From a virus, in IMG/VR virus record IMGVR_UViG_3300023199_000021, positions 66,846 through 130,845 of that record: a stretch of DNA of 64,000 bases; one strand, written 5' to 3'. The position numbers and the translations under genes are program-made. Below are positions 41,202 through 59,265 of the stretch, in pieces. The notes beneath the pieces were generated by a model that saw only the letters and a list, made by a program, of their open reading frames with translations, did not search any database and had not been told where the DNA came from. Every line of letters begins with the position of its first letter. The stretch's first letter is position 1.

Positions 41202-41584
41202 TCTTCTTCCTTCTCATTATATGGCAATTCAATATAGGTAATGTTGTTGAGTTCACACCAATCCTTCTTGTCAATGTCACGCTTCTTCTGTTCTAAAAAG
41301 TCGCGTGCTGAGGAATGGAACAGACTACTAAATTTATAGTGCTGCTCGCCGTGAACTTCAACGCAAAGCTTGATCTGATTAATGTAGAAATCGAGATACT
41401 GAGTTCTTCCCGGCCTACAATTCACTGGAGCTTCTTCAAGGATTTGCATGGTAGGAAATAGCTCGTAAAGGATTCGTCTAGCTTGATTATGAAGCTTTGA
41501 TCTAGACTTGGAATCGTTTCCCGTAACTATTTCCCCACGCAATTTCCATTTACCTATGTTGCCAGCTAAGTCTCTTACTTTCAT
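41174..41584 (-). CDS. Vsr/PD-(D/E)XK-like endonuclease
   Basis: LDFYI..EVHGEQHY..RD..K..WC; ATGA-coupled start MKVRDL. Confidence 0.7.
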   Translation of the reverse strand: MKVRDLAGNIGKWKLRGEIVTGNDSKSRSKLHNQARRILYELFPTMQILEEAPVNCRPGRTQYLDFYINQIKLCVEVHGEQHYKFSSLFHSSARDFLEQKKRDIDKKDWCELNNITYIELPYNEKEEEWKNRIEHR

Positions 41585-42612
41585 GCTGCTAACATTACCT
41601 TGTTTGCATTCAATATTGCGAAGCCTTCGGTATTCCAAACCATACCTTGACCCTTGTAGGGCGTGATATTTCTATGAAACACGGTTGGGTCGGTGATTTC
41701 TGTGTTGATGAAAGAATCTCTCGTTCCCAAATCCAATACTACTCCGAAATCTTTCTCTGGCTCGTACCAAGACAGTTCGGGAGCGTGATTTACCTTGACT
41801 CCAAGCACACACATGGATTTGTCGCAGTTCAGAATGTCCTTTTCGATATGCACTTGCTCAAACATTTTGTAGTAGGTATGAGTAGGAACAAAGATATCGG
41901 TTGCTCTATTTCTGAATGGGCTAGAACTATCTCTACAGTCATTTCTTCGCATAGCAGTTTTACAAATACCGATTGTGCGTTGTACATCGGTAAAGTCTTC
42001 AATGGTAGGACCAGTGTTTTGCTTACTCGCTGCCATCAAAACATCCCATGCACCCTTTGCCATTTTCTTACGCATGGAATGGGCAATCTCTTGGACCCAC
42101 ATGCTTACCCTATCCCACTTGCCAATCATATTACTGAATTCAAAATTAATCCAGTCTCCTTCAAAGTCTGATTGTGGGACAAGAACATAGTCTACACTGT
42201 CATTGTCAATAACAACATTCTTGTTTTCATCAAGAAAAACAATGGGGTTGTTGACGTTTAATGTAGTAAGACCGTTCTTCTCTCGATGGAACGCTAGAAG
42301 GTCAAGCGGAAACTTTGGGATTTCTCCCGGTTGAATCTTTACTTTCTCGTAAATTTTCTGATAAGAAAAACCAAATCTTTCGATATCGGTTTTCATTACC
42401 TTGTGAGCGGCCTGAATGATATCCTCAAACGAAGCTTGTTTGATAATGCTCTCTGCCTTTTCCCTAAGAACAGGTAGTTCTCTCAGGTGAGCATCAAAGC
42501 TATCGTTATCTACTTCACCTAGATGTTGTTTTACTAGATCAAGCGATGGAAGAATAGGTGCTGCGGCAAATATCGCAGCTACGCTTTTTACAAAGTCACG
42601 CCTATCAAGCAT
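41581..42612 (-). CDS. Tat-signal-bearing diverged major capsid protein paralog
   Basis: N-terminus DRRDFV plus hydrophobic stretch. Body motifs PKFPLDLLA, DYVLVP, KKM..G.W..LMAA, KTAMRRN, TDIFV, LDL..RDSFI, EGFAILN.NKV match the large-phage MCP family as recalled. Confidence 0.7.
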   Translation of the reverse strand: MLDRRDFVKSVAAIFAAAPILPSLDLVKQHLGEVDNDSFDAHLRELPVLREKAESIIKQASFEDIIQAAHKVMKTDIERFGFSYQKIYEKVKIQPGEIPKFPLDLLAFHREKNGLTTLNVNNPIVFLDENKNVVIDNDSVDYVLVPQSDFEGDWINFEFSNMIGKWDRVSMWVQEIAHSMRKKMAKGAWDVLMAASKQNTGPTIEDFTDVQRTIGICKTAMRRNDCRDSSSPFRNRATDIFVPTHTYYKMFEQVHIEKDILNCDKSMCVLGVKVNHAPELSWYEPEKDFGVVLDLGTRDSFINTEITDPTVFHRNITPYKGQGMVWNTEGFAILNANKVMLAA

Positions 42613-42697
42613 GATGAATTCCTAAGATAGTATGTTTGTTGTTTAGACAAGAGACACCGACAGCACCCAACACTTTAATAAAATCTCTACGCTGCAT
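42605..42697 (-). CDS. 30-aa Tat-signal-only peptide
   Basis: MQRRDFIKVLGAVGVSCLNNKHTILGIHHA*; overlaps the recA stop and the next start. Confidence 0.55.
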   Translation of the reverse strand: MQRRDFIKVLGAVGVSCLNNKHTILGIHHA

Positions 42698-43688
42698 GTT
42701 CCATTCCTATCATTTCGAATACTTGTTGTCTTAGTTCATTGTAGTATTCAGGATTTTCCTCTAGGTATGTAGCAAAGTTTGCCATACCCTGAACCTTCTC
42801 ACCATTAGGCAAGGTCAACCAAGTTTTTCCTTCAACTACGCCAAAGTCCTTGGCTAGCTCTGCTAGCTCATACTCATTCCAAATACCTCGACCGTATTTG
42901 ATAATGCTAGTCACTTTTTGACCGGGAGGCCCAATGGCTGAGTTTTCTACAATCCAGTGAACCTTCTGTCCAATTTGTGTTTCCCCCTGCTTCAACGCTT
43001 CCTTGTGCGTTGCCCACAACTTTACGTCCTGAGCATACTTCAAAGCGTTACCTGATTTCTCAGTCTTACTTTTACCTGCTCCGAACTTCTGAATGTTAGC
43101 CATCAAGTGTGTAATACCTACGAGGGTTACACGGTTAATAGGTAGAACATTAGCGAATCGCCTAGTGAACTTAGCAAGATAGCGATTCATAGCGGCAACT
43201 TGAGTGTCGGTGATATCACCAACAAGTTCGTCTTCTGCTGCTAGTGCAGAGAAAGAGTCTATCACGCATACAGCGTGTGGTTCATTATGAATGATATTGT
43301 CAAAGATGGCAAGGTATTTTTCACCCGAAAGAATGTTGCCTTTCGTGGAACCAACAACTTTTAATCCTTCGGGTGAATAGTCCAATCCATGAATACCTTC
43401 GAGGTCACGCTTTTTCAATCGTCCTTCGATATTGCCATAATAGATTTTGCGTTTTGCTTCTGATTCGGTCGCCACCTTTTGTGCATTTTTACAAAATTGC
43501 AAAGCTTGTACAGTCTTACCCACTTTTTCTGGTCCTGTCATGATAAACAGACAGCCTTCGGGGACACCGCCCCCCAAGGCTATATCTATTTTAGGGCTCA
43601 CCGAAATTAACGGAGGCGGATTATCGACGATGTAAGACGCTTCAAGTAGCACGTCACCATACTCTTTAATAATGTCTTTTTCTGTCAT
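42687..43688 (-). CDS. recA: RecA/UvsX-like recombinase
   Basis: GGGVP, GPEKVGKT, IDSFSAL, SGNALKY. Confidence 0.88.
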   Translation of the reverse strand: MTEKDIIKEYGDVLLEASYIVDNPPPLISVSPKIDIALGGGVPEGCLFIMTGPEKVGKTVQALQFCKNAQKVATESEAKRKIYYGNIEGRLKKRDLEGIHGLDYSPEGLKVVGSTKGNILSGEKYLAIFDNIIHNEPHAVCVIDSFSALAAEDELVGDITDTQVAAMNRYLAKFTRRFANVLPINRVTLVGITHLMANIQKFGAGKSKTEKSGNALKYAQDVKLWATHKEALKQGETQIGQKVHWIVENSAIGPPGQKVTSIIKYGRGIWNEYELAELAKDFGVVEGKTWLTLPNGEKVQGMANFATYLEENPEYYNELRQQVFEMIGMEHAA

Positions 43689-44119
43689 TCCAAATCCTTG
43701 AGTTTTGATATAACTGACTTCTTGTTATTGTTAGTGTCAAAGGTTTTCTTTTCCGAGAAGTCATACTCAACCTTTTGGGCAATCTTACGTGCGATTTCTG
43801 CTTTGTCTTTGTATTCTTTGACAACCTTTTCAAGCCAAGGACTACGTAAGGAATACGTCTTCCATGTACGGTTGTCTTGCAGAGCAGAGATTACAGCGTG
43901 TTCCCCATATTCTTTGATAAGCTTATTGGCAAGAGTAATTTGGTATCTGTAGAACTTAAGCCATTCTTTTAATTCCCAGAACTTTAGAGGAAGTTCCTTG
44001 TTTTCTGTTTTTGCTTTTTTCTCACAGATTAGCTCAGTGATATACTGTGCCGCATGTACCCACTCTCGCGGTGAATAGCGGGATGGGTACTTACTTTTTT
44101 CAGTTCTTTGTTTGGCCAT
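43685..44119 (-). CDS. Conserved hypothetical phage protein
   Basis: AAQYITELICE, YSLRSPW. Confidence 0.6.
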   Translation of the reverse strand: MAKQRTEKSKYPSRYSPREWVHAAQYITELICEKKAKTENKELPLKFWELKEWLKFYRYQITLANKLIKEYGEHAVISALQDNRTWKTYSLRSPWLEKVVKEYKDKAEIARKIAQKVEYDFSEKKTFDTNNNKKSVISKLKDLE

Positions 44120-44456
44120 CGTCTTTGGAGATAATATGAGTAGTCGGTTTGAACCTTTTTACAATTTTACTCTGCTTTTTACCTCTCGTTAGCTCTGATC
44201 TGGAAGATTCTGCCTCGGTCATAATGCTGACGCCCCTGTTGTTTTGGGCAGCGGTACGACGAACAAACTGGGTAGGATTCTTTTTGCCAGATTCCTCTTG
44301 AACTTCTTCTTCCGGTTCAAATACTGAATCCACATGCTTTTGTACAGCCTGTGAGCTACGCCCCAAGAAGTCTGCGATTTCATCAATCTCATTATCTTGT
44401 TCGTACATGGTTTCAATAGTGAACTTTTCTGCTTTACTTAATCTACCTTTAGCCAT
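44100..44456 (-). CDS. HTH-containing protein
   Basis: IDEIADFLGRSSQAV; IMTEAES. Confidence 0.55.
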   Translation of the reverse strand: MAKGRLSKAEKFTIETMYEQDNEIDEIADFLGRSSQAVQKHVDSVFEPEEEVQEESGKKNPTQFVRRTAAQNNRGVSIMTEAESSRSELTRGKKQSKIVKRFKPTTHIISKDDGQTKN

Positions 44457-44857
44457 TACACTTCCCTTTCTGCGTTACGAAGCCACGCCGAATTTTTTGT
44501 TTGAAGAAATTTGATATAGTAATTGAAGACCTTACTACTGGTCGCCTCGAATCTCCATTCTGGCCTGCCAGCGTGTCGCATCTGCTTGTTTTTAGTTCCC
44601 TCTGTGTACATGCCAATCGGATTATAAAGATGGCCGTGACGCCCACGCTTTACGTAATACGTGGTAAGTCTGCCCTTTGTAATCTTTAAGGCATACGCAT
44701 CTGGTGAGGAAAATAAATCTTCTAAGTCTTCCTCGCCAATCTCTATCATTGGATAGCCCTGATCATCCATAAAGTCATGCTCACCTTTGAAAGTGTAAGC
44801 TGAGATTAGAATGTCAGACGGGTCTTCTTTGTCTCTGTCGATTTTAAAAGTGGTCAT
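44456..44857 (-). CDS. Conserved hypothetical phage protein
   Basis: LYNPIG, YIKFL.TKN.AWL.NAERE. Confidence 0.6.
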   Translation of the reverse strand: MTTFKIDRDKEDPSDILISAYTFKGEHDFMDDQGYPMIEIGEEDLEDLFSSPDAYALKITKGRLTTYYVKRGRHGHLYNPIGMYTEGTKNKQMRHAGRPEWRFEATSSKVFNYYIKFLQTKNSAWLRNAEREV

Positions 44858-45240
44858 TTACCCTTCCTTTTCTTTTTAGCGTCTTGTTTTGAAATACGAG
44901 GCATATCGCTATTTGTTTTAGCTCGACTCATACCGGATGGTAGTTCTTTTATTCCAGTGTTAGGGTTCTTCTTTGTCTTATAGCTACGTAGCTTTGCATC
45001 ACGTTCGTCACGACTTAGTTTGGCAGTTTGTTTGTCTGCATATTCACCCAGAGTCGTTGCTTCGTGAAGGCCCTTGACATAGTTTGGAACAATACGGTCT
45101 GCACCGTAGTCCCTCAATACCCTCTTACTTTTGCATTCGGGGCATTTTACCTTTTTGATTTTTTCGTCGTATTCTGCTATTGAGAATACTGAGGTAAAAG
45201 CTACCTCACACTTTTCACATTCAAAACTATATTCCGGCAT
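44854..45240 (-). CDS. FmdB-family Zn-ribbon protein
   Basis: MPEYSFECEKC...CPECKS. Confidence 0.75.
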   Translation of the reverse strand: MPEYSFECEKCEVAFTSVFSIAEYDEKIKKVKCPECKSKRVLRDYGADRIVPNYVKGLHEATTLGEYADKQTAKLSRDERDAKLRSYKTKKNPNTGIKELPSGMSRAKTNSDMPRISKQDAKKKRKGK

Positions 45241-45478
45241 TACGAATTGTCCCCCATGCGTCGTCGTCCATTTTCTTTTTGAATCCTTCTTCTATAATTT
45301 TCATGGCACGTCCTACAACGTCCCAGCTTCCGATTTCAGATTCAGTTTTAACAGGGAAATTCACATACTTATGATAAGATGTTTTGCGACCCAATTCGCA
45401 AATTTCTTCCCTGTCTAGGTTACAAGATACACCAATGTTTTGAAAGTGGGGTGAATTATTTCCCAAACCACCATGCAT
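45227..45478 (-). CDS. Hypothetical protein, possibly frameshifted at upstream A7 run
   Basis: Frame is open upstream (KERDPRIFYPEKQIEM) as far as a TAA inside the A7 run. DREEI.ELG.K..Y.K.VNFPV resembles part of the tail tube sequence. Confidence 0.45.
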   Translation of the reverse strand: MHGGLGNNSPHFQNIGVSCNLDREEICELGRKTSYHKYVNFPVKTESEIGSWDVVGRAMKIIEEGFKKKMDDDAWGTIRNAGI

Positions 45479-45560
45479 TTCTATCTGCTTTTCAGGATAG
45501 AAGATACGTGGGTCACGCTCCTTTTTTTAGGAACGTCTGTAATTGTTTTTTTTGCACAAG

Positions 45561-45595
45561 AAAAAGGCAACGCCCTCGCAAGTGGGAGTGCTGCC
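45561..45595 (-). terminator. Intrinsic terminator
   Basis: GGCAGCACTCCC-ACTTGCGA-GGGCGTTGCC followed by TTTTT. Confidence 0.65.
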
Positions 45596-45613
45596 AATAG
45601 TTTGTTGGAATCT

Positions 45614-45841
45614 CTACGTTTCATTTTCATCCTCTAAGAAGTGCCCTTGAACGTCCAAACACTTTTTACAGTAAACCTTCGCTGCTCGAATTTCTACCGC
45701 ATCTGGAGAAAGTTTCAGGCCGTACCCTAAATAGTCTTTGCGGTATCGACCTGCCACTTCCACGTCAGGTATTATTACTGTTACTTTATCTCCATGTTCG
45801 AGCATACGATGGCAATTGTCGCACCGTTTAAGCTCGTACAT
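45614..45841 (-). CDS. Small Zn-binding protein
   Basis: CDNC...YCKKC. Confidence 0.6.
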   Translation of the reverse strand: MYELKRCDNCHRMLEHGDKVTVIIPDVEVAGRYRKDYLGYGLKLSPDAVEIRAAKVYCKKCLDVQGHFLEDENET

Positions 45842-46376
45842 ATGTTCTCCATTCTTTTGGCATGGTAGACCAAGGAGACATACCAGTGTAGAACTTGCTT
45901 GGATCAGGTTCGTGTGGTATAGACAGCAACTTCATTCCAGCTTGGTCTAGAGTTCTATCGTCCTTGCGAGAGTTGCAACGCAGACACGCGATTACCGTGT
46001 TCTCCCAAGTATGAGCCTCTTTTGGTTTTGCAAAATGGCTTTTGGGCTTAACGTGATCGATAGTAGCAACCTTTGGTGCCAATTCTTCACCGCAGTATTG
46101 ACAGCTACGGTTGTCACGAATCAACAGATTACGCTTCTTAAGAGCAATCTTACGACGACGCTTTACATAACGATTAGCTACAGCAACAGCCGGTACTGGA
46201 AATAGATCGCCGCCAGCAGACTCAACAATATCGTCTTCGTAGTATTCGATTACTCGAACACCTTCTCCCGGCATTTCTTTTCCAATAATTTGCAAGCATA
46301 ATGCTCTTTTCCAACTGATCACAACCAAAGGTGTGTAGTCTTGGTTCAAGATCAAACAAGGTTCGTGCTTAGCCAT
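45828..46376 (-). CDS. HNH endonuclease (McrA-like)
   Basis: LILN.DY.PL, RD..SCQYCG, TIDHVKP, WEN.V.AC..CN..K. Confidence 0.9.
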   Translation of the reverse strand: MAKHEPCLILNQDYTPLVVISWKRALCLQIIGKEMPGEGVRVIEYYEDDIVESAGGDLFPVPAVAVANRYVKRRRKIALKKRNLLIRDNRSCQYCGEELAPKVATIDHVKPKSHFAKPKEAHTWENTVIACLRCNSRKDDRTLDQAGMKLLSIPHEPDPSKFYTGMSPWSTMPKEWRTYVRA

Positions 46377-46485
46377 TTTAAAAAGTCCATATCAAAAAAA
46401 GTAAAGTTTAGTTTCCCGAAAAGAGAAGCTACTCCAATTATAGCCGGTTCTCTCTGTCTTCGGGCGTTTTTCCGTAGGTTTTTGC

Positions 46486-47328
46486 TTATTTTTTCAGCCT
46501 CAATTTACTGACCTGATCCACCGTTTCATGTTTTGGATGCGTCGAACAGTGAATCAGAATTGGTTTTAGTTGCAAGAATGTCTTCAATGTCATCTGAGTA
46601 ATGGGTTCTCTGCTAAATCTTGGAGGATAGAAAACTTCATCAAACAGCTTGGAGTTCATGACTATCTCTAAAAGTATCTCGTCGTTGAACACCGCTGGGT
46701 TTTTAGGCCAAAAGTGTTTGTTTGCTTTGTTTGTTTTGTTTATTATTTCTACGAAGTGGTCTTCGTTAGTTGGGTCTAGCCCATTGTCTCGTAAGAAAGC
46801 GAGCATCTTGTCACAGTTCTCATGAGAAAAGGAATTGAATCCGCTGCCACAAGTTTTGTATTCGTCAACATCTATATCGTGCAATAGGTTCGACACATAG
46901 TACTTGAAGAAGTACATTGTGCTAGCGGTTATTGGTCCCTTTCTATTTATCACAGAATGAGGCATGTAGACTTTATCCCAGTCTAGAACATCGAAGTAGT
47001 TTTCTTCGTCGCTTACTGAGACAATATCCATATCTAGAAACAACGCCTGATCATAATCAGAATCGGAAAAGGTATAGAATCTGGAAATCTTACGAAGCGT
47101 TGCTCTCCACCAAGAGTTAACTGAATCGGCATAACTACAATGTTTCTCTACAAAGCTTTCAATTTTAGCCATGTATTCGTTATCTAATCCTACCCACTGT
47201 ATCTCGATTCCGAATCTTTTAAAGTAGTTGGAAAGGTTCTCTTTAGCTTTCCTTTGCCAATTACCAAAGCCATAACTACCATCTGCTAGTCGCGGATACG
47301 TGTCTTGAATGTATACTGTTCTTTTCAT
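46486..47328 (-). CDS. GT-A (GT8/GT34-like) glycosyltransferase
   Basis: YDQALFLDMDI DxD motif, SGF, NDE, LIH. Confidence 0.6.
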   Translation of the reverse strand: MKRTVYIQDTYPRLADGSYGFGNWQRKAKENLSNYFKRFGIEIQWVGLDNEYMAKIESFVEKHCSYADSVNSWWRATLRKISRFYTFSDSDYDQALFLDMDIVSVSDEENYFDVLDWDKVYMPHSVINRKGPITASTMYFFKYYVSNLLHDIDVDEYKTCGSGFNSFSHENCDKMLAFLRDNGLDPTNEDHFVEIINKTNKANKHFWPKNPAVFNDEILLEIVMNSKLFDEVFYPPRFSREPITQMTLKTFLQLKPILIHCSTHPKHETVDQVSKLRLKK

Positions 47329-47329
47329 G

Positions 47330-48025
47330 TTATTTTCTTATAGCTAAGGCTGTTCCTGTAATAATGACTCGACGATCCAATCCTACTGCAAAAGGACCAT
47401 TAGGCTTTTTTGCTTCTTCTTCATTGATTTCGATACCGCGTTCTTCGGCAAATTCAATTACCGCTCTCTTAGCACCGGGACATTTCCAAAAGGCATAGTC
47501 GTCCATCATTATGATACCGTCATCTACCAATCTCTCCCAAGTATTCTCCATAGAAAACTTAGTTGCTTTATACAGGTCTACATCTATAAAAGAAAAAGAA
47601 ATCTTATCAGGCAAGTCTTCTTCTACTAAATCTAATATATTTTTGTTGTGTATTTCTGGCAGTTCCATATTTCGGCTTTGAAACATATCTATGAACTTGT
47701 CAATATCCCATTTTAGATCACCCTCCTTGAATGGTGTTGGTTCTACCCAATCAAATATTGGACTATCTGTTATTTCTTCATCAAATTCGTGCAGGTTTGT
47801 TAAACCCTGCCAATGATCATAACAATGTAGTTTCTTCTCAGGACAAAGACTATCTATGATAGCTTTCATGAAGACAGAACTGGATCCGCGAAAGCACCCG
47901 AACTCTGTAACGTCGCCTTCTAATTCTTTTGTTCTGTCGAGATATAGGGCAATGGCGAATTTTCTTTCCGAAGTAGTAACCTGCCGATTGCAAACCAAGA
48001 ATTGTATAAAGTTTTTTAGTTCCAT
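47330..48025 (-). CDS. TylF/MycF family O-methyltransferase
   Basis: GDVTEFGCFRG, YDHWQG, FIDVDLY, DDY..CPGAK.AV. Confidence 0.88.
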   Translation of the reverse strand: MELKNFIQFLVCNRQVTTSERKFAIALYLDRTKELEGDVTEFGCFRGSSSVFMKAIIDSLCPEKKLHCYDHWQGLTNLHEFDEEITDSPIFDWVEPTPFKEGDLKWDIDKFIDMFQSRNMELPEIHNKNILDLVEEDLPDKISFSFIDVDLYKATKFSMENTWERLVDDGIIMMDDYAFWKCPGAKRAVIEFAEERGIEINEEEAKKPNGPFAVGLDRRVIITGTALAIRK

Positions 48026-48035
48026 ATATTCCCCC

Positions 48036-48069
48036 AAAAAAATAGGGCCACGTTATTACACATGGCCCC
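48036..48069 (-). terminator. Intrinsic terminator
   Basis: GGGCCATG...CGTGGCCC followed by TATTTTTT. Confidence 0.7.
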
Positions 48070-48095
48070 GTAACTGTTCGATTATCTCTAGCGAT

Positions 48096-48422
48096 CTAGT
48101 TAGATGGCTGAGGATTATTTGGTTCCGGCTCTGGCTTATGGATTTCATATGGCTTGACCAGCATAGGAAATACTTCTTGCAACTTAGCACAGGCTTTATG
48201 CAGTTCATGCTCATGGCAACAATCTGCCAAACACTCCCACTTGCTAACCAACGATGTTAGATCATGATCAGGCTTTGCATCAGGTTCCACGCTTGGTGCT
48301 ACATTCTTATTGCTAAAGCCCAACTTCTCAGAAATTGTAGGCCATAGCAGAAACAAACCACCTGCTAATAAAATCCATTGTAGAGCGTCTAGGCCCTTGA
48401 AAAATTCGATTATTTGATCCAT
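48096..48422 (-). CDS. Membrane-anchored hypothetical protein
   Basis: N-terminal TM; KWE.L...C...AC..L..VFP.L. Confidence 0.6.
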   Translation of the reverse strand: MDQIIEFFKGLDALQWILLAGGLFLLWPTISEKLGFSNKNVAPSVEPDAKPDHDLTSLVSKWECLADCCHEHELHKACAKLQEVFPMLVKPYEIHKPEPEPNNPQPSN

Positions 48423-48441
48423 GAGTTAAACTCCTTAGTTC

Positions 48442-48624: not shown

Positions 48625-48628
48625 AGTT

Positions 48629-51011: not shown

Positions 51012-51056
51012 CCCCTTCGGATTGATATTACGAACTGTTAAACATTTCGGCCTTCC

Positions 51057-53597
51057 TTAAGCACATCTTGACCAACCACATTGGGTACAGGTCACACAAC
51101 CCTCTTGTCTGACAAGACATTCACCACCCTCACATTCTGGACAAGTACCTTCTTCTTTAGCACCATCAGGAATATATTTCTTGAGTGCCCTTGCCATACT
51201 ACGTGCAAAGCAATTCATATCGCCCTTAACCTTTTCTAGTTGCTGGACGACCATATGAATATCTGCACCATGCCGTAGTGCTGTAGATGCCATTCTTGTT
51301 AGTGCATCTTCTTCGTCACTACAAGTCGCATTAATTGGAGATAGTTCTAAGCCGTTTTCTAGAATAGCCTTGTAGACACCCTTTGGCCTTCCAAGTTTTC
51401 TGATAACGCCTGTTCCTACCTTCTTGTCAATAAAACCATTCTTTCCTGCGAACACTTCGTAAGGATCGCCTTCAAGCAACCCAACCAATACGAAATATTC
51501 TTCACCCTTTACTCTTATATGGTGAACATCGCAATCCAATTCTTTTGGTCTTTCTGGAGCGATAGTTTTTGGTATTGTATCTTTGTCTTCATCATCGTCA
51601 AGAGAAGATGATTCGGACAGCACAGCGGTCATGGTTCCTGCACGATAGGTTGTGAAACCTTTAATACCGTTCTTCCATGCCTTTGTGTAAACGTCTTTGA
51701 AATCTTCGTAAGGATAGTCATTTGGCAAGTTGATCGTCTTAGAGATAGCAGAGTCTACCCAATTTGCGAAGATTGACATCGTGTTGACGTGGGCATCAAC
51801 ATTCAAATCCATAGTACATGCTGCCCACACCATTTCGGGGTTCCACTTTCCTTCTCCCTTAAGATAAGATACACCATAATCCTCAATCCATTCTTCCTTT
51901 AGTAACCCCCTACTGCGGTCATATTTCCAGACTTTTCCTTCAAATTTTGTAGCTAACAGGTCTTCATCCCCCTCTTTTAACCATCTCCAACCGGGGTCTG
52001 GTGCGACTTGATCGTTACCATCAAGGTTAAAGTGCCTATTTTTCCAGTCAACATTGATAGGCATTGTTAATCCGTTAGGAGGAACAGGTTGAATGGAAGT
52101 ACGGACGTATCCATGCATGAAAAGTGGCTCCAAACCACCACTAACTAGATTGGCATAGCAAGAACCGTTACCTGTAGGTTGAATTGAAGAAACATGAGAG
52201 TTGCGAATACCATACTTCTTGATCAAAGCAATAGTATTCTTGTTTAATTTCTTAACAAAATTACTATCAAGATACTTTTCTTCATCATAGAGAGGGAAAG
52301 AACCCTTCTCTTTAGCTAGAAGTGCCGATGCCTTGTACGCTTCGTTGGTGAAGAACTCCATCAACTTGTCTGTCATTTCCAAGGCTTTCTTACTACCATA
52401 TTTGATACGAGCCATCAATAAAGCAGACCCATATCCTAGAACACCAAGGCCGATACGTCGCTTGTTGAGCAAGTTATCTTTCTGACTCTCCAAAGGTACA
52501 TAGGTCTTGTCGTTTACGTTGTCCATAAAACGAACTGCCGTATGGATAGTCTCTTTTAGTTCGTCATACTTCCAACCCCTAGACTTAGGATCAACGAAGT
52601 GAACCAAGTTGATAGAGCCAAGCAAACATACACCACCAATAGGTAGTACTTGTTCGCCACAGGGGTTGGTCGCATTAATCCACTCGCAATAACGAAGATT
52701 ATTCATGCGATTCATATTGTCTACGAACAATACTCCCGGTTCATTTCGGTTATACGTGTTGTCCATGATAAGATCCCAAAGTTCTCTTGCAGAATCAAAT
52801 CTATGGTAGACAACAAAAGGATCAGCATCACTCTCCCCGTTGAAATCACAGGCGTCTTTCCAGTCATTGATATCTCCCTTCCAATACTCCTTGTAAGTTA
52901 CTGGATACGACTCATAGTTTGGGAAAATAAGCTCCCAAGGTTCGTAGTTCTCTACAGCTTCCATGAACCTGTCGGTACACAATACAGACATATTGAACTT
53001 AGAAAGTCTGCCGGGAGTTTCCTTGGCACCGATGTATTCCATAATGTCAGGATGCCAGCAAGACATTGTTACCATCTGGGCACCCTTACGGATGAAGTTC
53101 TTTTGGTCTTTTCGAGAAGCCTTATTGGAACCAGCGGTAATAATCTCAGAAGATTTATCCCATAGCTCAAGAAACTTAACGGCACCGGGAGATTGGTTAG
53201 CAATACCATGGATGTGAGAGCCACAAGGACGCATTACGTCAGCACAGAAACCGTAGCCACCCTCACTCTTTAAAATCTTTGCCTGTCTAAGTAGACAAGA
53301 ATAAATACCTTCGATTGAATCGAGGTCTTCGCCTTCAAAACCATCAACAAAGCAGTTGATATAGGTGGTTCCTTTTAGGCCGGTTCCCGCATTACTGGTG
53401 ATACGTCCACCGGGCACGAATTTGAAATCATCTAGAGCATCGTAAAACTTTTGTTCCCACTTCTCTTTGTCTTCTTCAATAGATGCTAAATCTTTTGCTA
53501 CTCTTTTCCATGTGTCTTCTACGCATTCGTCTTCTCCAAACTTATACTTTTGAAACCAAGTTTCCTCGGAGAAGGAATTAGAAAATTTGCTTGTCAT
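51057..53597 (-). CDS. nrdJ: Class II (adenosylcobalamin) ribonucleotide reductase
   Basis: PGGRI, INCFV, NPCGEQ, CLLGS, QPTG, ISKTIN; C-terminal TSCPD-like/Zn ribbon; SD AAGGAG before ATG 53597. Confidence 0.9.
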   Translation of the reverse strand: MTSKFSNSFSEETWFQKYKFGEDECVEDTWKRVAKDLASIEEDKEKWEQKFYDALDDFKFVPGGRITSNAGTGLKGTTYINCFVDGFEGEDLDSIEGIYSCLLRQAKILKSEGGYGFCADVMRPCGSHIHGIANQSPGAVKFLELWDKSSEIITAGSNKASRKDQKNFIRKGAQMVTMSCWHPDIMEYIGAKETPGRLSKFNMSVLCTDRFMEAVENYEPWELIFPNYESYPVTYKEYWKGDINDWKDACDFNGESDADPFVVYHRFDSARELWDLIMDNTYNRNEPGVLFVDNMNRMNNLRYCEWINATNPCGEQVLPIGGVCLLGSINLVHFVDPKSRGWKYDELKETIHTAVRFMDNVNDKTYVPLESQKDNLLNKRRIGLGVLGYGSALLMARIKYGSKKALEMTDKLMEFFTNEAYKASALLAKEKGSFPLYDEEKYLDSNFVKKLNKNTIALIKKYGIRNSHVSSIQPTGNGSCYANLVSGGLEPLFMHGYVRTSIQPVPPNGLTMPINVDWKNRHFNLDGNDQVAPDPGWRWLKEGDEDLLATKFEGKVWKYDRSRGLLKEEWIEDYGVSYLKGEGKWNPEMVWAACTMDLNVDAHVNTMSIFANWVDSAISKTINLPNDYPYEDFKDVYTKAWKNGIKGFTTYRAGTMTAVLSESSSLDDDEDKDTIPKTIAPERPKELDCDVHHIRVKGEEYFVLVGLLEGDPYEVFAGKNGFIDKKVGTGVIRKLGRPKGVYKAILENGLELSPINATCSDEEDALTRMASTALRHGADIHMVVQQLEKVKGDMNCFARSMARALKKYIPDGAKEEGTCPECEGGECLVRQEGCVTCTQCGWSRCA

Positions 53598-53613
53598 TTC
53601 TACTCCTTGAGAT

Positions 53614-53648
53614 AAAAAAAGACCCACCTTAAGACGACAAGATGGGTC
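53614..53648 (-). terminator. Terminator in the nrdJ 5' leader
   Basis: GACCCATCTT-GTCGTCTT-AAGGTGGGTC followed by T7, just upstream of the nrdJ RBS. Confidence 0.75.
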
Positions 53649-53843
53649 GTGATTTTCGAAAGCGACACGTTTTAATATTCCAATGATGACCACATAGTAA
53701 ATTGTTTTGTTGTTATTGAAATAAACCAACCGAATAAATTTGGTTGTGGTCAACTCAGAATTGTAATTAATAGCCAGACTCGTGCCGCTTTAACGGTGAG
53801 AGAATTACGCTCTTTATGTGTCTAGCCAATAGTAATATACACC
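53649..53843 (-). promoter_or_regulatory. Structured nrdJ leader (attenuator/riboswitch or ncRNA candidate) with GGTGTATA promoter-like motif
   Basis: Stems GGCTAGAC/GTCTGGCT and TGACCACA/TGTGGTCA enclose hairpins. Confidence 0.45.
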
Positions 53844-53876
53844 GCCCGAACCCATTTTAAAGTTGCTGTCAACTTT

Positions 53877-54226
53877 TTAATTTTCGCTTTTGTGCAAATT
53901 CCTTATATCTAGTTCAGGTGGTACACTAATGCGACGACGCTTGATACCGGCGTCATCTAACATTTCATTAGCGAGTTCTAAATCTTCTCCCCACTGTACT
54001 CCTTTACCAGTGAACTACCTCTACCCTAAACTGATTTTTGATCCGATTTCTTGGGGAAGGTTAGTTGAAGATAGTGAGTCCTATGAAATCAGCTTCATCT
54101 TGCGTTGATTTGCGTCATGTTTGATGACATTTTTAGCTCAGTCGCTTCGCTTATGACCAGCCAATTCTCTTTTAGAATTGGTAGGGGCTTTCTGCCCGCT
54201 AAGAGGTAAAACTCGTCCCAGTTCAT
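53877..54226 (-). pseudogene. dCMP deaminase remnant
   Basis: N-terminus MNWDEFYL (TGATG-coupled start) and C-terminus QWGEDLELANEMLDDAGI; catalytic core replaced by an IS-end element. Confidence 0.6.
54010..54202 (-). mobile_element. Miniature IS200/IS605-type palindromic element
   Basis: GCGGGCAGAAAGCCCCTACC...TTTAGGGTAGAGGTAGTTCAC with several internal hairpins. Confidence 0.7.
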
Positions 54227-54459
54227 CAGTTATATTTCCTTACGTTTTTACGTGTACATGAGCAGTATTCAAGACGTTGCAAGATAGGTCTATCGTTGCG
54301 AATGGTTGTTGTTCCTACGCCGGTTTGATAAACCAAATATCCCTTGCCATAGCAAGTTTTGCATCTTTCTTTTGCATAAAGCTCTGCAATATCAGGGTCT
54401 ACTTGATACTTGTAGCGTCCCTGAAAGGATTTCTTTCCAAAATTTAAGCCTTCAATCAT
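54226..54459 (-). CDS. Small DnaJ-type Zn-finger protein
   Basis: CKTCYGKG...CSC. Confidence 0.6.
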   Translation of the reverse strand: MIEGLNFGKKSFQGRYKYQVDPDIAELYAKERCKTCYGKGYLVYQTGVGTTTIRNDRPILQRLEYCSCTRKNVRKYN

Positions 54460-54473
54460 TATTTATTTCTCCA

Positions 54474-54524
54474 AAAAAAACGACAGAGCATACCTTCCTC
54501 GTTAAAGAAATTATACTCTGTCGT
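54474..54524 (-). terminator. Intrinsic terminator
   Basis: ACGACAGAGTATA...TATGCTCTGTCGT followed by T6. Confidence 0.7.
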
Positions 54525-54542
54525 TGAGCGGTTTATCTGCTT

Positions 54543-54869
54543 TTAATCTGAATTTTCTTCGTTGTTGCCAGAGCCAAGAATGGAGTTTGCACAGCTAGTT
54601 AGTACACTCGTCATGATCTCAATCTTGGAATTAAGGTTCATTTCTAGCTTGTCGATTTTCTGTTCGATCTTATTGTCGAAAGTATCTATTTTGCGTTCCA
54701 TAACTTCCAGCCTACGGTTAATTTCGGCGTTCACTTTTTCTTCCAGTAAGTCTAGCTTACGATTGTGTGATATCACAGTCTTAAGCAACCAAGCGACTAT
54801 AGGCAAAAAAACAAGAGCAGAGATTTCAAGTATTAACTTGGTGGTTTCTAAGATTGAAGTCTCGTCCAT
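54543..54869 (-). CDS. TM plus coiled-coil protein
   Basis: N-terminal TM followed by heptad repeats. Confidence 0.6.
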   Translation of the reverse strand: MDETSILETTKLILEISALVFLPIVAWLLKTVISHNRKLDLLEEKVNAEINRRLEVMERKIDTFDNKIEQKIDKLEMNLNSKIEIMTSVLTSCANSILGSGNNEENSD

Positions 54870-54896
54870 TTTACTTACTCTACCTTTGTTAAAGAC

Positions 54897-54931
54897 AAAA
54901 AAAGAAGCGTAAGCGTTGAAACTTACGCTCT
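54897..54931 (-). terminator. Intrinsic terminator
   Basis: AGCGTAAG-TTTCAACG-CTTACGCT followed by a T-run. Confidence 0.7.
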
Positions 54932-54944
54932 TAGAGTGAGGTTA

Positions 54945-55550
54945 TTAGTAAACTGTCTTTGCTTTGTAATCGTCTTGTTTAGGCAGAGGACTACCATCGC
55001 GGTAAACAAGTTCACCGGGAACAGCAGCAGAAGGATTAGCAGCGTTGTCTGTTCCACTAGATGCAACGGATGCACCAACGTCGCCTGTAGCACTAATGTC
55101 CCAAGCACCAGTGTTGCTAACACTTACAGCAGGATCGAATACACCCGAGAACTCTTGCCAACCACCTGTACGTACCGCAGTCTTGTAGAAATAGGTAGAT
55201 ACAGTTGTCTTTTGCTTGATAGAGAACGGACGGTTCGCAGAATTAGAACCACCAGAAAGAAGTGCGGTATTTGCTAGGTTAGCTAGATCGCTAGTTACTC
55301 TACGAATAACTTGATCACCACCATTGAATACGGCACCAGCAGAACCGTTAACAGCTTCAACACCGTTCACACCAGAATTGATGGTAACGTAGCGAGAAAG
55401 CCCTAAGTTAACAGCATCAGCGGTGAAACGAGTGTCGGCTGGAATATTACCACCAGCACGAATTGTACCTTGGTCGTTATCGACACCGCTTGGCAAACCA
55501 TCTGCATTTAGGTTTGCAACTTTGCTTGAGGAAATGCTCCAAAAACTCAT
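54945..55550 (-). CDS. Probable virion structural protein
   Basis: Gly/Ala/Ser-rich; TDNAANP..AVPGELVY..G...P..DDY motif; has its own terminator. Confidence 0.5.
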   Translation of the reverse strand: MSFWSISSSKVANLNADGLPSGVDNDQGTIRAGGNIPADTRFTADAVNLGLSRYVTINSGVNGVEAVNGSAGAVFNGGDQVIRRVTSDLANLANTALLSGGSNSANRPFSIKQKTTVSTYFYKTAVRTGGWQEFSGVFDPAVSVSNTGAWDISATGDVGASVASSGTDNAANPSAAVPGELVYRDGSPLPKQDDYKAKTVY

Positions 55551-55622
55551 AATACATACTCCATACGTTCGATATGGAATAATCCTAGTACTCCAACATT
55601 TAAAATCCTGTTCCTGTATTTA

Positions 55623-56246
55623 TTAATTACACCAAAGATTCAAATTGTAGAGTCTAAGGCCGAAGATTTCCGTACTAAGTACTAGGTCTAGCTGATCTTT
55701 TTTCCATATGTACCCGTTGAAAATAGTGGACATTTCGGTTTTTGTTTCAATAAGATTTGCTGCAATCAGATTATCGAAGAAATCGTCGTGATGATACCCA
55801 ATCGTGGGGAAAGCTATCTCAACCCCTAATTCATGGCATATTCTGGAGAAATTCACGATATTACTAATGTGGTGGTAGTCCAGAAACATGCGAAAAGTAG
55901 CCACATAGTCATCGCACATTGCCTTTGCTACTTTAATTTCACCTAGAAATTCCTTGTATTTACATCTAAATAGGTATTGATTGGGAACATAGTCGATAGC
56001 ATTAGCCCCGCTTTGTAGCGAGTTCAATATCATGAAGTTTCTAGCCTTGGTAGAGGCGTAACCGGATGGAAAATCAACGGGAGCGGCCAACACAATATCT
56101 TCTGGCATGTATTCTTTGATCTCTCGTATCATATGGATAGGTAATGCTAGCCCTTTTAGGTCGTTTTCTAGTGCAAGGAAGATATGTTTAAGTTCTGACT
56201 CGTAGCTCTCGATGTACCTATTGTAATTGCAGTATTCAACATACAT
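55623..56246 (-). CDS. Degenerate DeoC-like TIM-barrel protein
   Basis: VDFPSG..ST..R, GANAID.V; lacks the KTSTG lysine. Confidence 0.55.
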   Translation of the reverse strand: MYVEYCNYNRYIESYESELKHIFLALENDLKGLALPIHMIREIKEYMPEDIVLAAPVDFPSGYASTKARNFMILNSLQSGANAIDYVPNQYLFRCKYKEFLGEIKVAKAMCDDYVATFRMFLDYHHISNIVNFSRICHELGVEIAFPTIGYHHDDFFDNLIAANLIETKTEMSTIFNGYIWKKDQLDLVLSTEIFGLRLYNLNLWCN

Positions 56247-56919
56247 GTGATTTGATATTTTCTAGAGTTTCGTAACCTTCCGTTCCCCATACCGCATCTG
56301 CAAAACCATGAGCTACGGCTTCCTCGGAAGATAACCACCAATCCTCTTTCTTTTCTAGGTGTTTTTTGATGGAGTTTTTAATCTGGGTTTCTGATTTGCC
56401 GCTGTACAGTTCAGAATTTGCACAGACACCGGCATAGATATCCATCATTTGTTTACGCGTTCTGTCTTCCCATTCGGCCCAAGACTTAGCTTGTCTCATT
56501 ACCTGACCATTGATATCTGTATATCCGTCATGAATCAGCCACCAACAGTTCGGCATACTAACTCTTAAATCGGCTGCTTGGGGAACGATACTTCCCATAG
56601 ATGCTGCAATACCGTGAGTAATGACGATTACAGGAGCATCACATGTTTGTATCGCATCGTACATCATCACCCCCTCGGTCCAATAACCGCCTACTGAATG
56701 TTGATGTATCACAATTGGCTTTGAAGTATCAATACGACTTAGCAATAACATATTCTTCAAGAAGTAATTTGCCATACGATATTCAACGCCGGGGTCTTCT
56801 TCATCGTTGTCGATGTAACCATGTAGAAAGACCTCTCTAGATTCCAAGAGAATACTAAAGCGATGCATTTCATCAACAATGTATCCCTTGGATACCCTAT
56901 CTCTATTCCTCAAGCTCAT
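56236..56919 (-). CDS. clpP: ClpP-family serine protease
   Basis: HSVGG, GIAASMGS, LIHDG, DWWLSSEEAV.HGFAD. Confidence 0.88.
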   Translation of the reverse strand: MSLRNRDRVSKGYIVDEMHRFSILLESREVFLHGYIDNDEEDPGVEYRMANYFLKNMLLLSRIDTSKPIVIHQHSVGGYWTEGVMMYDAIQTCDAPVIVITHGIAASMGSIVPQAADLRVSMPNCWWLIHDGYTDINGQVMRQAKSWAEWEDRTRKQMMDIYAGVCANSELYSGKSETQIKNSIKKHLEKKEDWWLSSEEAVAHGFADAVWGTEGYETLENIKSHVC

Positions 56920-57361
56920 TTTGTTTCACCACTCCCAACAGGGTCTTTCGTACAGCGTGCATAACCTCCCTGTCTCTAAATAATTTACCGACACCTATTC
57001 TAAACCTATAGGGTGTCAGTATGTCTACTGATTCTACACCCCTACATGCTTCGATGATAGGATAATAATTTTCTAGAAGTTTGAAGTTAGAATGTCCTAC
57101 CCAGAACTTGAAGTGAGAACTTGCTAAACTATTCTCTGTTAGGGGCAGAACACCAAAAGGGGTTATGATTGTCTTAATCGGCTTTTCAAAGAATGGCAGT
57201 TCTTCCATTTCCTCAAAATCAATATCTTCTTGAGTATCTTCTAGCTCTCTTTCAAATGCTTCTTTTGCATTGTTAATTGATTCATCAGAATAGGCATCTA
57301 CCCAAGGCTCCCAATATACATCGAAATCACTTGGGATAGGCATTTCATTTGTGTTGCTCAT
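56903..57361 (-). CDS. Conserved hypothetical phage protein
   Basis: TPFG, FKFWVGHSNF, GVE...TPYRFRIGVGKLF. Confidence 0.6.
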   Translation of the reverse strand: MSNTNEMPIPSDFDVYWEPWVDAYSDESINNAKEAFERELEDTQEDIDFEEMEELPFFEKPIKTIITPFGVLPLTENSLASSHFKFWVGHSNFKLLENYYPIIEACRGVESVDILTPYRFRIGVGKLFRDREVMHAVRKTLLGVVKQNELEE

Positions 57362-57370
57362 ATTTCACCT

Positions 57371-58336
57371 TTATACTGCGACAGCACCGAAGTCTATCTT
57401 AGGATGTGGATCATATCCTACCAGTTCGAAGTCCTCATACGTCCAATTAAAAATATCGAATGGTTCCCCACTGATTTTTAATTGAGGCAATTTGCGGGGC
57501 GTTCTCGTAAGCTGTTCCTTTGCCCCTCCGTCAATCTGATTTTCATAGATATGACAGTCCTCTAGAACACCCACTAGCTCTCCCGCTTTTAGACCACTTT
57601 CTTTGCAGAGCAATTCTAAAAGTAGTGCATAGCTGGCAATGTTGAAAGGTACTCCCAACATCAGGTCGCAAGATCTTTGCTTCCAACATAAATTTAATAC
57701 ACCATTAATATGTACTAGGGTAAAGGCATAATGGCAAGGTGGTAGAGCCATAAGGTGAATTTGGTTAGGATTCCATGCAGAAACGACCATCCTGCGATCA
57801 TCAGGGTTGGTTTTTAAAGTTTCAACAACTTTCTTTAGCTGGTCGGTTCCTTTAAAAACACCGTTGACCTTTAATATTCCTGCATTTGCACCTTGATCAT
57901 CCCAAAAATCATCGCCACTTCTATTGGGAAAATGCTGATCGAACTTACGCCATTGATATCCATAGATAGGTCCAAGGTCTATTATTTTTTCTTGTATCTG
58001 CTTTTTAGTTTTAATTTTTTCATCATTTTGAAATGGATTAAGATTTCTTGCCGAGTAGTAAAGTTTATCAACCTCTTTTGGATTAGCCCATTCATTCCAA
58101 ATCTTACACTTGCGTTCTTGATACCAAGATTTATCTGTAACTCCTTTGATAAACCCTTCAAGTTCGACAGCCATAGCTTTGACTGCCATCTTTTTAGTTG
58201 TCAATAAAGGAAAACCCTTAGACATATCATGCCGAAAGATTTCGCAGAAAGTGGCTAATGTCCTATACTTAGTACGATTACCTTTCCATTGTCCTGTATG
58301 TAGCACATTATGTACTATGTCCAAATAGCTTTTCAT
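57371..58336 (-). CDS. thyA: Thymidylate synthase
   Basis: FPLLTTKK, LGPIYGYQWR, ALPPCH, QRSCD..LGVPFNIASY, HIY. Confidence 0.95.
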   Translation of the reverse strand: MKSYLDIVHNVLHTGQWKGNRTKYRTLATFCEIFRHDMSKGFPLLTTKKMAVKAMAVELEGFIKGVTDKSWYQERKCKIWNEWANPKEVDKLYYSARNLNPFQNDEKIKTKKQIQEKIIDLGPIYGYQWRKFDQHFPNRSGDDFWDDQGANAGILKVNGVFKGTDQLKKVVETLKTNPDDRRMVVSAWNPNQIHLMALPPCHYAFTLVHINGVLNLCWKQRSCDLMLGVPFNIASYALLLELLCKESGLKAGELVGVLEDCHIYENQIDGGAKEQLTRTPRKLPQLKISGEPFDIFNWTYEDFELVGYDPHPKIDFGAVAV

Positions 58337-58767
58337 TCTTTCATTCTTCTGAAATTAAAAACTTGTGATGCGGGTGACGCTACCCTGCCACCAGATTGTA
58401 CTTTTTGGTCTAGAACGAAACTATGTAGCTTTTGCATTTGGTTTACAAGCTGTTCGTTGAATGCTTTCTTTTCTGGATCGTCACCGGCCCACATTTTCAG
58501 CGATTCATAGATAAAGTTCTCCAACTCTCCCTGAGAGATATGAAAGATTAAGTAGGAAAGGATGTTAACCGAATCTTCTGACAGGTCATCTATTTCGGAT
58601 AGAACCGTAAAGTTCCCCGTACCTGAATTGTACTCAATTAGAATCTTACCAGCAGCATCGCTCTCGATTTCTTCTGGTATAATCTTTTCTTTTTGAAGAC
58701 TGTTTAGTAAGTATTGTAACAAACTCATGATCCCGTTATATATTGATTGAAACTTGGGCAAATCCAT
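58333..58767 (-). CDS. Hypothetical protein
   Basis: ORF with P..VF C-terminus; true start may be MSLLQY. Confidence 0.5.
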   Translation of the reverse strand: MDLPKFQSIYNGIMSLLQYLLNSLQKEKIIPEEIESDAAGKILIEYNSGTGNFTVLSEIDDLSEDSVNILSYLIFHISQGELENFIYESLKMWAGDDPEKKAFNEQLVNQMQKLHSFVLDQKVQSGGRVASPASQVFNFRRMKE

Positions 58768-59265
58768 CGCTATCCTTTGAACTTAGAAAAGTGCCGATAC
58801 GATTGCCTTGATAGTTGTTGACTACTCCATTGTGGGAATAGGCTGTTTCACCAGCTTTAGCTTCTCCATCAACAGTAATGGTTACGATTCCATTTCTTAG
58901 AACCTGAACCTTGCCTCCTTGCATAACCTGATCGCTGCAACTGATATGCTGTTTTGTTAAGTCGATATTACATGCTCAAAGTCTAGGTCAGGCACCCATA
59001 CAATCTCAAGTGCCCCACCATCGCCCTGACTATTCAATATATCCGCTAGGCTTCCACTTGTGTTACTAGGAAGCATACCGGTAACTGGAGAAGTTAATAG
59101 TTGTAACTTAGACGGAGGATCAACAGGTTGATCTAAGTCAATAAACTGGCTCGACTTAACTGCTTCCTCAGCGGCTCCTACTCTTTTCTTGATAGGTACG
59201 GTTGCCGCAGCCGCAGCACCGAAACCTAGCATCTTTAGAAATCCTCTACGTTCTATTTTAGTCAT
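58736..59265 (-). pseudogene. Tat-signal-bearing capsid decoration-like paralog, split by a -1 frameshift at ~58968
   Basis: ERRGFLK signal ORF (58957..59265) continues in the -1 frame as NIDLTKQHI...QGGKVQVLRNG...IGTFLSSKDSDGFAQVSINI. Confidence 0.6.

Follow-up and report, generated by a model that had tools for sequence, protein, structure and literature searches.

Twin-arginine-like N-termini on diverged copies and mosaics of virion proteins in a tailed-phage genome

The capsid, portal and tail proteins of tailed phages are held to be active nowhere but in the cytoplasm and the particle, and twin-arginine translocation (Tat) is viewed as a pathway of the host. Why, then, should a tailed phage carry open reading frames (ORFs) that begin like Tat substrates and continue as copies of its own virion proteins? 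This question is raised by a 64,000-nucleotide stretch (hereafter, the window) of the IMG/VR record IMGVR_UViG_3300023199_000021. The window (C1:66846-130845) makes up the right-hand half of a tailed-phage record that is complete, 130,845 bp long and bounded by direct terminal repeats; positions carrying the prefix C1 are those of the whole record, and the others are those of the window. We found that this one phage combines a component of the Tat system with a family of ORFs in which Tat-type N-termini stand before copies or patchworks of virion proteins.

Three minus-strand ORFs (41581-42612, 42605-42697 and 58957-59265), encoding 343, 30 and 102 amino acids (aa), respectively, have the twin-arginine start noted in the original prediction; each opens as M-x(1-5)-RR-x-F-[VIL]-K, and the next 12-15 residues are uncharged. 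The motifs read DRRDFVK, QRRDFIK and ERRGFLK, and all three were assigned to the consensus (S/T)-R-R-x-F-L-K. Using an in-house rule instead of a published predictor (an RR in the first 20 residues and a hydrophobic residue at +2/+3, followed by an uncharged, mainly hydrophobic stretch of 12 or more residues), precisely these three ORFs were picked among the 1543 genome ORFs of at least 25 aa (130,845 bp). When the same rule was applied to 1.18 Mb of related phage loci, 8 of the 2821 ORFs of at least 60 aa were picked, six of which were one tail-tube N-terminus read from a wrong upstream start. In the TIGR01409 model (cut-off 16.7 bits), the 102-aa ORF scored 21.1 bits, above the cut-off, and the 30-aa ORF fell just under it (16.0 bits); one relative scored 17.6 bits in PF10518 (cut-off 22.7). 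The hydrophobic region (h-region) of the 102-aa signal is followed by KKR-V-G-A and then A, a basic c-region. The RR is invariant in all 17 aligned family members from this phage and its relatives, the small members having been partly chosen by the RR motif. The Tat-like N-termini are therefore a real, conserved and non-chance feature, but only one ORF passes a curated model, and the family shows the sequence marks of a Tat signal only in part.

The capsid likeness originally predicted for the passenger of the 343-aa protein was confirmed. It aligns with the genuine major capsid protein (MCP) of this phage from residue 45 to the end, with 23% identity (E 2e-14; 6.5e-11 in another search), and the profile built from the paralog matches the MCPs of 12 of 12 relatives (E 1e-29 to 1e-37). 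The AlphaFold2 (AF2) model based on a 62-row alignment is of moderate confidence (predicted local distance difference test, pLDDT, 62.8; predicted TM score, pTM, 0.64), with residues 1-60 unmodelled; it replaced an earlier model from a 6-row alignment, which was unusable (pLDDT 36.1). Foldseek with the AF2 model returned 202 PDB matches at E ≤ 1e-3. The matches listed are all encapsulins or capsids of phages, gene transfer agents or phage-inducible chromosomal islands, and the best ones are encapsulins (E 8e-7 and below). A PDB sequence search with the capsid profile gave one weak match, 6wkk 'Gp27 major capsid protein' (E 0.018). Thus, as judged from the sequence homology and the modelled fold, the 343-aa ORF is an HK97-fold MCP paralog. 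It is located 47 kb from the genuine MCP gene, on the opposite strand and among replication genes. The head genes lie at C1:52-61 kb in the plus-strand late block, which begins outside the window, and the remoteness from a head module that had been predicted was borne out. By its place and by the dispensability described below, the paralog does not appear to be a virion capsid protein, which would be encoded in the head module and form the shell.

The exhaustive HMMER search with the capsid paralog (1.84 billion representatives, E ≤ 1e-3) provided 9 proteins including the query. Three are full-length (P0003, P0004 and P0006; 32-39% identity), two are an N-terminal fragment (P0007) and a C-terminal fragment (P0005), and one is a more capsid-like 370-aa protein (P0009); the remaining two are an ordinary MCP (P0008) and an irrelevant 2545-aa protein. 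A word-index search added P0002 (61% identity) as the sole close homolog, and a single-protein IMG/VR scan with the 343-aa protein provided no relative. The RR and the hydrophobic stretch are kept in all five body-homologs that have an N-terminus (P0002, P0003, P0004, P0006 and P0007), and also in P0009, while the ordinary MCP P0008 has neither. The expectation that the RR motif is conserved in homologs was thus upheld, and the test is not circular because the homologs were retrieved through the capsid body and not through the signal. In 10 of 10 pairs, conservation is higher over residues 1-33 than over the body. The family alignment shows no conserved small-x-small (AxA-type) site, and therefore the signal may be an uncleaved anchor. 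The tree, which places the Tat-bearing capsid proteins on long branches beside the slow-evolving genuine MCPs, is compatible with a single origin of them all; since it permits this, an independent origin of P0009 is not claimed.

The 30-aa ORF contains little beyond the signal and was not present in the relatives L004, L006 and G001. Over its first 35 nucleotides, it shares 74% identity with the beginning of the ORF at 45630. In a search for long DNA repeats that would mark a mobile cassette, none was found, this 35-nucleotide match between two signal-coding starts being the sole find.

The 102-aa ORF was found to carry a passenger different from the expected one. It had been likened to the small decoration protein; no similarity to the cement (decoration) protein or its family was detected by sequence comparison or Pfam. 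Instead, residues 70-95 resemble residues 345-370 of the portal protein of this phage and also of G001 (46% identity, E 2e-4). A PDB sequence search with the portal gave no match. A decoration paralog does exist, at other coordinates: the separate 62-aa ORF, which has no signal, resembles residues 90-155, the C-terminal half, of the 156-aa cement protein (41% identity, E 3e-10). It scored 14.8 bits against Phage_cement (PF22758; cut-off 27) over profile positions 82-145 of 146, and thus covers a part of the domain. The proposed grafting of signals onto two partner proteins of the head shell therefore stands for the capsid paralog and fails for the decoration paralog. The 102-aa and 62-aa ORFs occupy different frames. 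A frameshift joining them was considered and rejected as unsupported, there being no slippery run in the 6-codon overlap. The complex prediction for the 102-aa passenger (residues 30-102) with the 62-aa ORF scored 0.01, which gives no answer and is evidence neither for nor against an association. A scan with the 102-aa protein brought up nothing but L003, an unrelated Tat lipoprotein resembling it in the signal peptide alone, which was discarded. A sediment-metagenome contig from another study (run X3) corresponds to the portal-motif part of the 102-aa gene (58971-59064; 1 of 94 letters different) and diverges below 58971, suggesting a relative with the same piece in another context.

A further unit, not named in the original prediction, consists of the 49-aa and 83-aa ORFs, located at a hot spot between an HNH gene (45828-46376) and a zinc-ribbon gene (44854-45240). 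The 49-aa ORF, starting at 45630, lacks the uncharged h-region demanded by the rule. The 83-aa ORF is a mosaic: residues 4-64 resemble residues 227-287 of the tail tube protein (36% identity, E 9e-9), and residues 52-83 resemble residues 125-156 of the MCP (56% identity, E 1e-9). At the frame change there is an A7 run (CCT AAA AAA AGG), where a -1 shift would fuse the two ORFs; slippage, phase variation and a fixed frameshift are all possible. Both insertion hot spots adjoin endonuclease genes, one homing-endonuclease-like (41174-41638) and the other of HNH type by reading of the ORF (45828-46376). Break repair at such endonuclease-flanked hot spots might copy in pieces of late genes.

Similar arrangements were found among the relatives. 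In the IMG/VR contigs L004, L005 and L006, a capsid paralog occupies the same site directly after the recA-like gene, which is thus its conserved upstream neighbour. In L004, L006 and L124, clusters of Tat-like ORFs occur at the HNH/zinc-ribbon hot spot, and their passengers are non-collinear pieces of late proteins. The capsid pieces correspond to MCP residues 33-73, 78-100, 112-135, 201-229 and 311-324 (50-69% identity), tail-tube pieces are also present, and one ORF of L124 combines a capsid piece with a large-terminase piece (37%, E 1e-4). For all seven small Tat-like ORFs of L004 and L006, a structural protein is either the only match in the phage proteome or the best one, ahead of the 83-aa mosaic; the same holds for both complete Tat-like ORFs of L124. 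Conversely, L004, L005 and L006 have no non-Tat ORF with a late-protein fragment as its best match. In L124, an ORF that is cut by the contig end, and whose N-terminus therefore cannot be judged, also shows a match of this kind; it begins with a portal motif and continues with a tube piece. The three mosaics of L124 are located at 12-545 (portal motif and tube), 547-1107 (capsid, capsid and tube) and 1129-1737 (capsid and large terminase). The small Tat-passenger families are conserved between lineages at 36-59% identity, and the capsid paralog is intact across 27-61% identity. The candidate system of Tat-like N-termini on head-protein paralogs, as originally proposed, is thus supported, and its scope is wider than was supposed.

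The ORFs concerned are intact under translation table 11. The region 41500-59400 is matched letter for letter by contigs of one possible source run, and also by 46 contigs of a second sample of the same study (at least 99% alike, with no indel listed), one of which spans 45267-46053 without a difference. Because the contigs of the second sample reproduce the region, the ORF boundaries are not assembly slips of one data set.

These genes are absent from close relatives. The nearest long relative, G001, has an MCP 92% identical and a RecA 90% identical to those of this phage, and 89 of 174 ORFs are in common. In G001, however, the recA-like gene is directly followed by the endonuclease gene, the capsid paralog and the 30-aa ORF being absent at intact flanks. 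In the interval bounded by its GMP reductase and 144-aa genes, G001 has only a 57-aa hydrophobic ORF, and the 102-aa and 62-aa ORFs are missing. The 49/83-aa pair has no counterpart at its site, and the sole match of the 83-aa ORF is within the G001 capsid gene. Twelve relatives chosen by their MCPs were searched as whole records (13 with G013, chosen for its TatA; L016 was left out), and neither a second capsid copy nor a TatA was found in the twelve. Because G001 lacks the Tat-passenger genes and none of the 12 relatives has a second capsid copy, these genes are not needed for this virion type. The capsid family itself abounds in marine data, with 599 or more IMG/VR stretches and over 4065 protein clusters (E ≤ 1e-5), and no match was found in the cultured-phage collection to the 343-aa protein (tblastn), 20 kb of the DNA (megablast) or TatA. 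As judged from these comparisons, the ORFs form an accessory gene family that belongs to one subgroup within a marine lineage of tailed phages, the lineage itself being very common.

The link with the Tat system is not limited to the N-termini. The phage encodes a TatA of 84 aa (C1:34254-34508, minus strand; L009 1414-1668), located outside the window. Its scores against PF02416 (50.4/49.9 bits; cut-off 21) and the presence of the LLFG hinge place it in the TatA/B/E family. Beside it, L009 1997-2896 encodes a protein of 299 aa whose signal is of the lipoprotein type. By the in-house rule, no other candidate client of the phage TatA was found among the 1543 ORFs of the genome. TatA lies in the variable left arm (about C1:22-45 kb), which is almost without counterpart in G001, and for that reason its absence in G001 is weak evidence. 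The nearest cellular TatA found, with 54% identity over residues 1-56, is from a metagenome-assembled genome of Planctomycetota, in which TatA is present as a tandem pair with the same N-terminal extension. The TatA profile also detected three other viral contigs; in two of the three, a canonical Tat-signal ORF directly adjoins TatA, and both of these hold a second such ORF. The two adjacent pairs are in unrelated high-GC viral contigs, L140 (= L010; 5983-6938) and L142 (5582-6165), and that of L140 immediately precedes a terminase-sized gene. On this sequence evidence, cassettes of TatA and a client may be a wider phage feature. In addition, G001 has a DUF1501 gene (410 aa, 186 bits; C1:19166-20398 of that genome, L121 667-1899) with an almost identical start, MKRRDFIK. 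DUF1501 is a classic Tat family, and because the G001 gene has this start, Tat signals seem to be in normal use in this phage group. The G001 gene is an exported-type auxiliary gene and, together with the TatA match, points toward Planctomycetota-like hosts.

The features of the genome are collected in Table 1. On the minus strand, the window from 20.9 to 64 kb contains genes for replication and nucleotide metabolism (a recA-like gene, a helicase, a ribonucleotide reductase, a thymidylate synthase and a ClpP-like protease). Among these, the ClpP-family protease (56236-56919) scored 88 bits and corresponds to 'head maturation protease' in PHROG; its gene, conserved in G001, stands far from the head genes, and the product may be either the prohead protease or an auxiliary protease. 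The ribonucleotide reductase (51057-53753) and the product of the syntenic G001 gene share only 22.6% identity across 509 aligned residues, which suggests replacement by a different type. The size of the large terminase, and that of the helicase homolog in L006 (837 aa, 6729-9242) as compared with the helicase here (484 aa), suggest inteins, as judged from length and sequence.

Table 1. Tat-type ORFs, their passengers and neighbours, and the late-block genes of the phage
Feature	Length (aa)	Position	Strand	Remarks
Capsid paralog	343	41581..42612	-	Tat-type N-terminus (residues 1-~30), linker of ~50 residues, full-length diverged HK97-fold MCP paralog
Signal-only ORF	30	42605..42697	-	little beyond Tat signal; overlaps stop of recA-like gene and start of 343-aa gene
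Homing-endonuclease-like gene		41174..41638	-	directly downstream of capsid paralog; phrog_559 E 3e-17, phrog_9084 E 2e-15
recA-like recombinase		42687..43688	-	upstream neighbour of capsid paralog; Pfam RecA 80.5 bits
Degenerate Tat-like ORF	49	45481..45630	-	KRRD, then Leu/Ala/Pro-rich stretch broken by R
Tube and capsid mosaic	83	45227..45478	-	follows 49-aa ORF
Tat-type ORF with portal motif	102	58957..59265	-	signal (residues 4-31), linker, C-terminal portal-like motif
Cement paralog, signal-less	62	58736..58924	-	starts 32 bases after stop of 102-aa ORF
Large terminase	1100	C1:52096-55398	+	first in late-block order; intein-sized
Portal	720		+	after terminase; ESM Atlas structure, TM 0.60-0.64 to portal clusters
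Coiled-coil protein	524		+	after portal
Cement/decoration protein	156		+	beside MCP; Pfam Phage_cement 27.9 bits (cut-off 27)
Genuine MCP	333	C1:60272-61273	+	NF042927 E 2.4e-6 (below its cut-off); phrog_2522 'major head protein'
Tail tube protein	384		+	after MCP; Atlas score 0.96 to Phage_tube_2 clusters
Tape measure protein	3044		+	last in order

How can these features be explained together? On balance, we lean slightly toward the reading that the products are routed through Tat and have a non-virion role as mimics of virion proteins. Each family member would then consist of a Tat signal peptide and a passenger drawn from the late proteins of the phage, which is in some cases an entire, diverged capsid paralog of HK97 fold and in others a short patchwork of capsid, cement, portal and tube pieces (with terminase too in one relative). 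The products would be made with the early or middle genes, before or apart from the virion genes. This timing is inferred from the strand and the neighbours only: early or separate expression is probable because the genes are on the strand for replication and nucleotide metabolism. The RR signal would bring the product to the host TatBC receptor, and the phage TatA would add translocation capacity. The passenger would reach the periplasm, or an uncleaved signal would tether it to the outer face of the inner membrane. At its destination or en route, the product would act as a virion-protein mimic in a conflict role, and not as a building block of the particle. This role would be either the exclusion of related phages or the titration of a host factor that recognises virion proteins. 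An encounter with an incoming tail in the periplasm is conceivable for the tube and portal pieces but not for those of capsid and terminase; the host-factor version is attractive because a terminase piece is present and the pieces are close to the genuine proteins. A periplasmic shell, which had been suggested at the outset, fits poorly with a family whose members are mostly short mosaics of capsid, portal, tube and even terminase.

Several points weigh against Tat routing with such a role. The Tat system normally proofreads folding, and the fragment mosaics are unlikely to fold. In two units the signal and the passenger lie on separate ORFs, a division that decay could explain just as well. 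The N-terminus of the 343-aa protein scored 12.1 bits in TIGR01409, below the cut-off of 16.7, and was not reported by Pfam TAT_signal at E ≤ 0.1; in TIGR01409, E ≤ 0.02 was reached by 5 of the 17 family members and missed by 12. The conservation at the N-terminus exceeds that of usual signal peptides and includes a conserved stretch past the hydrophobic core, and this region may do something other than, or beyond, targeting. No TatC was found in the phage genome, and Tat routing would depend wholly on the host, to which the Planctomycetota TatA is the sole lead, and a lead and not a finding. In the other TatA-bearing contigs, no paralogy of the Tat passengers to structural genes was detected. 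Finally, the co-occurrence of TatA and the cargo genes is known from one complete genome, L004, L005, L006 and L124 being short contigs.

A variant of the mimic reading concerns the disposal of host proteins. Capsid, portal, tail tube, cement and large terminase are conserved phage proteins detected by bacterial pattern-recognition sensors. Made early, the mimics might bind such immune sensors or other host factors and drag them, as hitchhikers, to or through the Tat translocase; the sensors would be cleared from the cytoplasm before the genuine late proteins appear, with the phage TatA raising the capacity. This 'decoy and dispose' variant would explain the presence of pieces of terminase, a strictly cytoplasmic protein, the closeness to the genuine sequences and the hypervariable accessory genes. 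We nevertheless consider it, as one joint proposal, to be rather unlikely.

Among explanations without export, the one that gives the 343-aa protein a place in the virion deserves the most weight, and yet it is improbable. It would be a minor or vertex capsid protein, whose N-terminus tethers it to the membrane, binds the scaffold or is removed as a propeptide by a protease, while the head is assembled in the cytoplasm as usual. The full-length, intact HK97-fold paralog agrees with this, as do an N-terminus that is conserved beyond the generic need for targeting and scores below the TIGR01409 cut-off, and a ClpP-type protease gene in the same arm. However, G001, with its 92% identical MCP, lacks the paralog at intact flanks and still has the ClpP gene, and no second capsid copy exists in the 12 relatives. 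The gene is also placed among replication genes on the strand opposite to the head module. Moreover, short mosaics of tube, portal and terminase cannot be capsid subunits, and the phage TatA would be left unexplained.

Two other explanations make the passengers incidental or functionless. In one, the host TatBC receptor would be taken up or stalled by the signals, especially those of the 30-aa peptide and of the mosaics that cannot fold, and in infected cells the export of host Tat substrates would thereby cease. The existence of a signal-only ORF, passengers that are unlikely to fold and a signal region that is the most conserved part are what would be expected. A phage that supplies extra TatA, however, raises the capacity and does not block it, and the jamming of the translocon raised in the original prediction is at odds with this. 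Nor would incidental passengers be drawn repeatedly from late proteins, form families conserved at 36-59% identity, and include a full-length capsid paralog that is intact across 27-61% identity; interference with Tat is accordingly judged very unlikely. In the other, which we regard as the least probable of all, the ORFs would be remnants of late genes that were duplicated or ectopically copied near homing-endonuclease genes and are drifting to loss, the Tat-likeness being without function. The split units (30 + 343, 49 + 83 and 102 + 62 aa), the degenerate 49-aa start, the A7 run at the frame change and the endonuclease genes next to both hot spots are in line with decay. On the other hand, the pieces keep their original reading frames within undamaged ORFs (83-379 aa), four more contigs (L004, L005, L006 and L124) show this architecture again at 27-61% identity, the N-terminus is the best-conserved part, and the frames are reproduced in the contigs of the second sample.

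Taken singly, the parts of this system (Tat signals, TatA, HK97 capsid paralogs, cement proteins) are familiar. Their combination is without a description in the literature searched. In full-text searches, the scope of which did not extend to subscription journals and supplements, neither Tat-signal capsid paralogs nor a phage-encoded TatA were found described, and the mentions of phage, virus or viral found in a 2026 Tat review (PMC13673990) are all unrelated. If the export is true, the surfaces of structural proteins would be re-used as envelope-directed effectors, which would represent a new class of accessory function. It would also bear on superinfection exclusion, on the evasion of defences that sense conserved phage proteins, and on Tat biology in terms of its clients, hitchhiking and extra TatA.

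Comparison with known systems clarifies which aspects are shared. In T4, gp24 is a paralog of the capsid protein gp23 and serves as the vertex protein. The present phage likewise has a second, diverged HK97-fold MCP copy in one genome; unlike gp24, this copy is separated by 47 kb from the head module, which is on the opposite strand; it also has a twin-arginine N-terminus and is absent from relatives with near-identical capsids. Encapsulins, the best structural match of the model, are also HK97-fold shell proteins with a non-virion role. The paralog differs from them in being phage-encoded and, by sequence, a paralog of the MCP of this phage, and no cargo or loading-partner gene was seen beside it. 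With a phage genome around it and recA-like and endonuclease genes as neighbours, the modelled paralog would resemble encapsulins in fold only. We know of no encapsulin with a Tat signal.

Superinfection-exclusion proteins of the envelope include the lipoprotein Ltp of TP-J34 and Imm and Sp of T4. On the host side, the Tat-exported periplasmic HXS effector blocks phage DNA entry (PMC13128918). The ORFs described here resemble these proteins in that they are accessory, are sent (by prediction) to the periplasmic side, where they would act on phage components while DNA enters, vary between close relatives and are probably early. They differ in that the known examples are not virion-derived, and pieces of capsid, portal and terminase have no obvious periplasmic target.

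A likeness in gene arrangement is found in the hitchhiker export of bacteria (HybO/HybC and PaoABC; PMC4273604). The S/T-R-R-x-F-L-K-type n-region, the moderately hydrophobic h-region and, in the 102-aa ORF, the basic c-region are shared, and so is the order of a signal-bearing ORF followed by a signal-less partner ORF (102 + 62 aa; 49 + 83 aa). In the bacterial cases the passengers are cofactor enzymes, while here they are copies or mosaics of virion proteins, a lytic-type phage supplies the TatA, and the pairing is known from the genes alone. Finally, the DUF1501 gene of G001 has nearly the same N-terminal motif and belongs to the same phage group; its passenger, however, is of an ordinary cellular enzyme family, while those of the present phage are copied from its own virion proteins.

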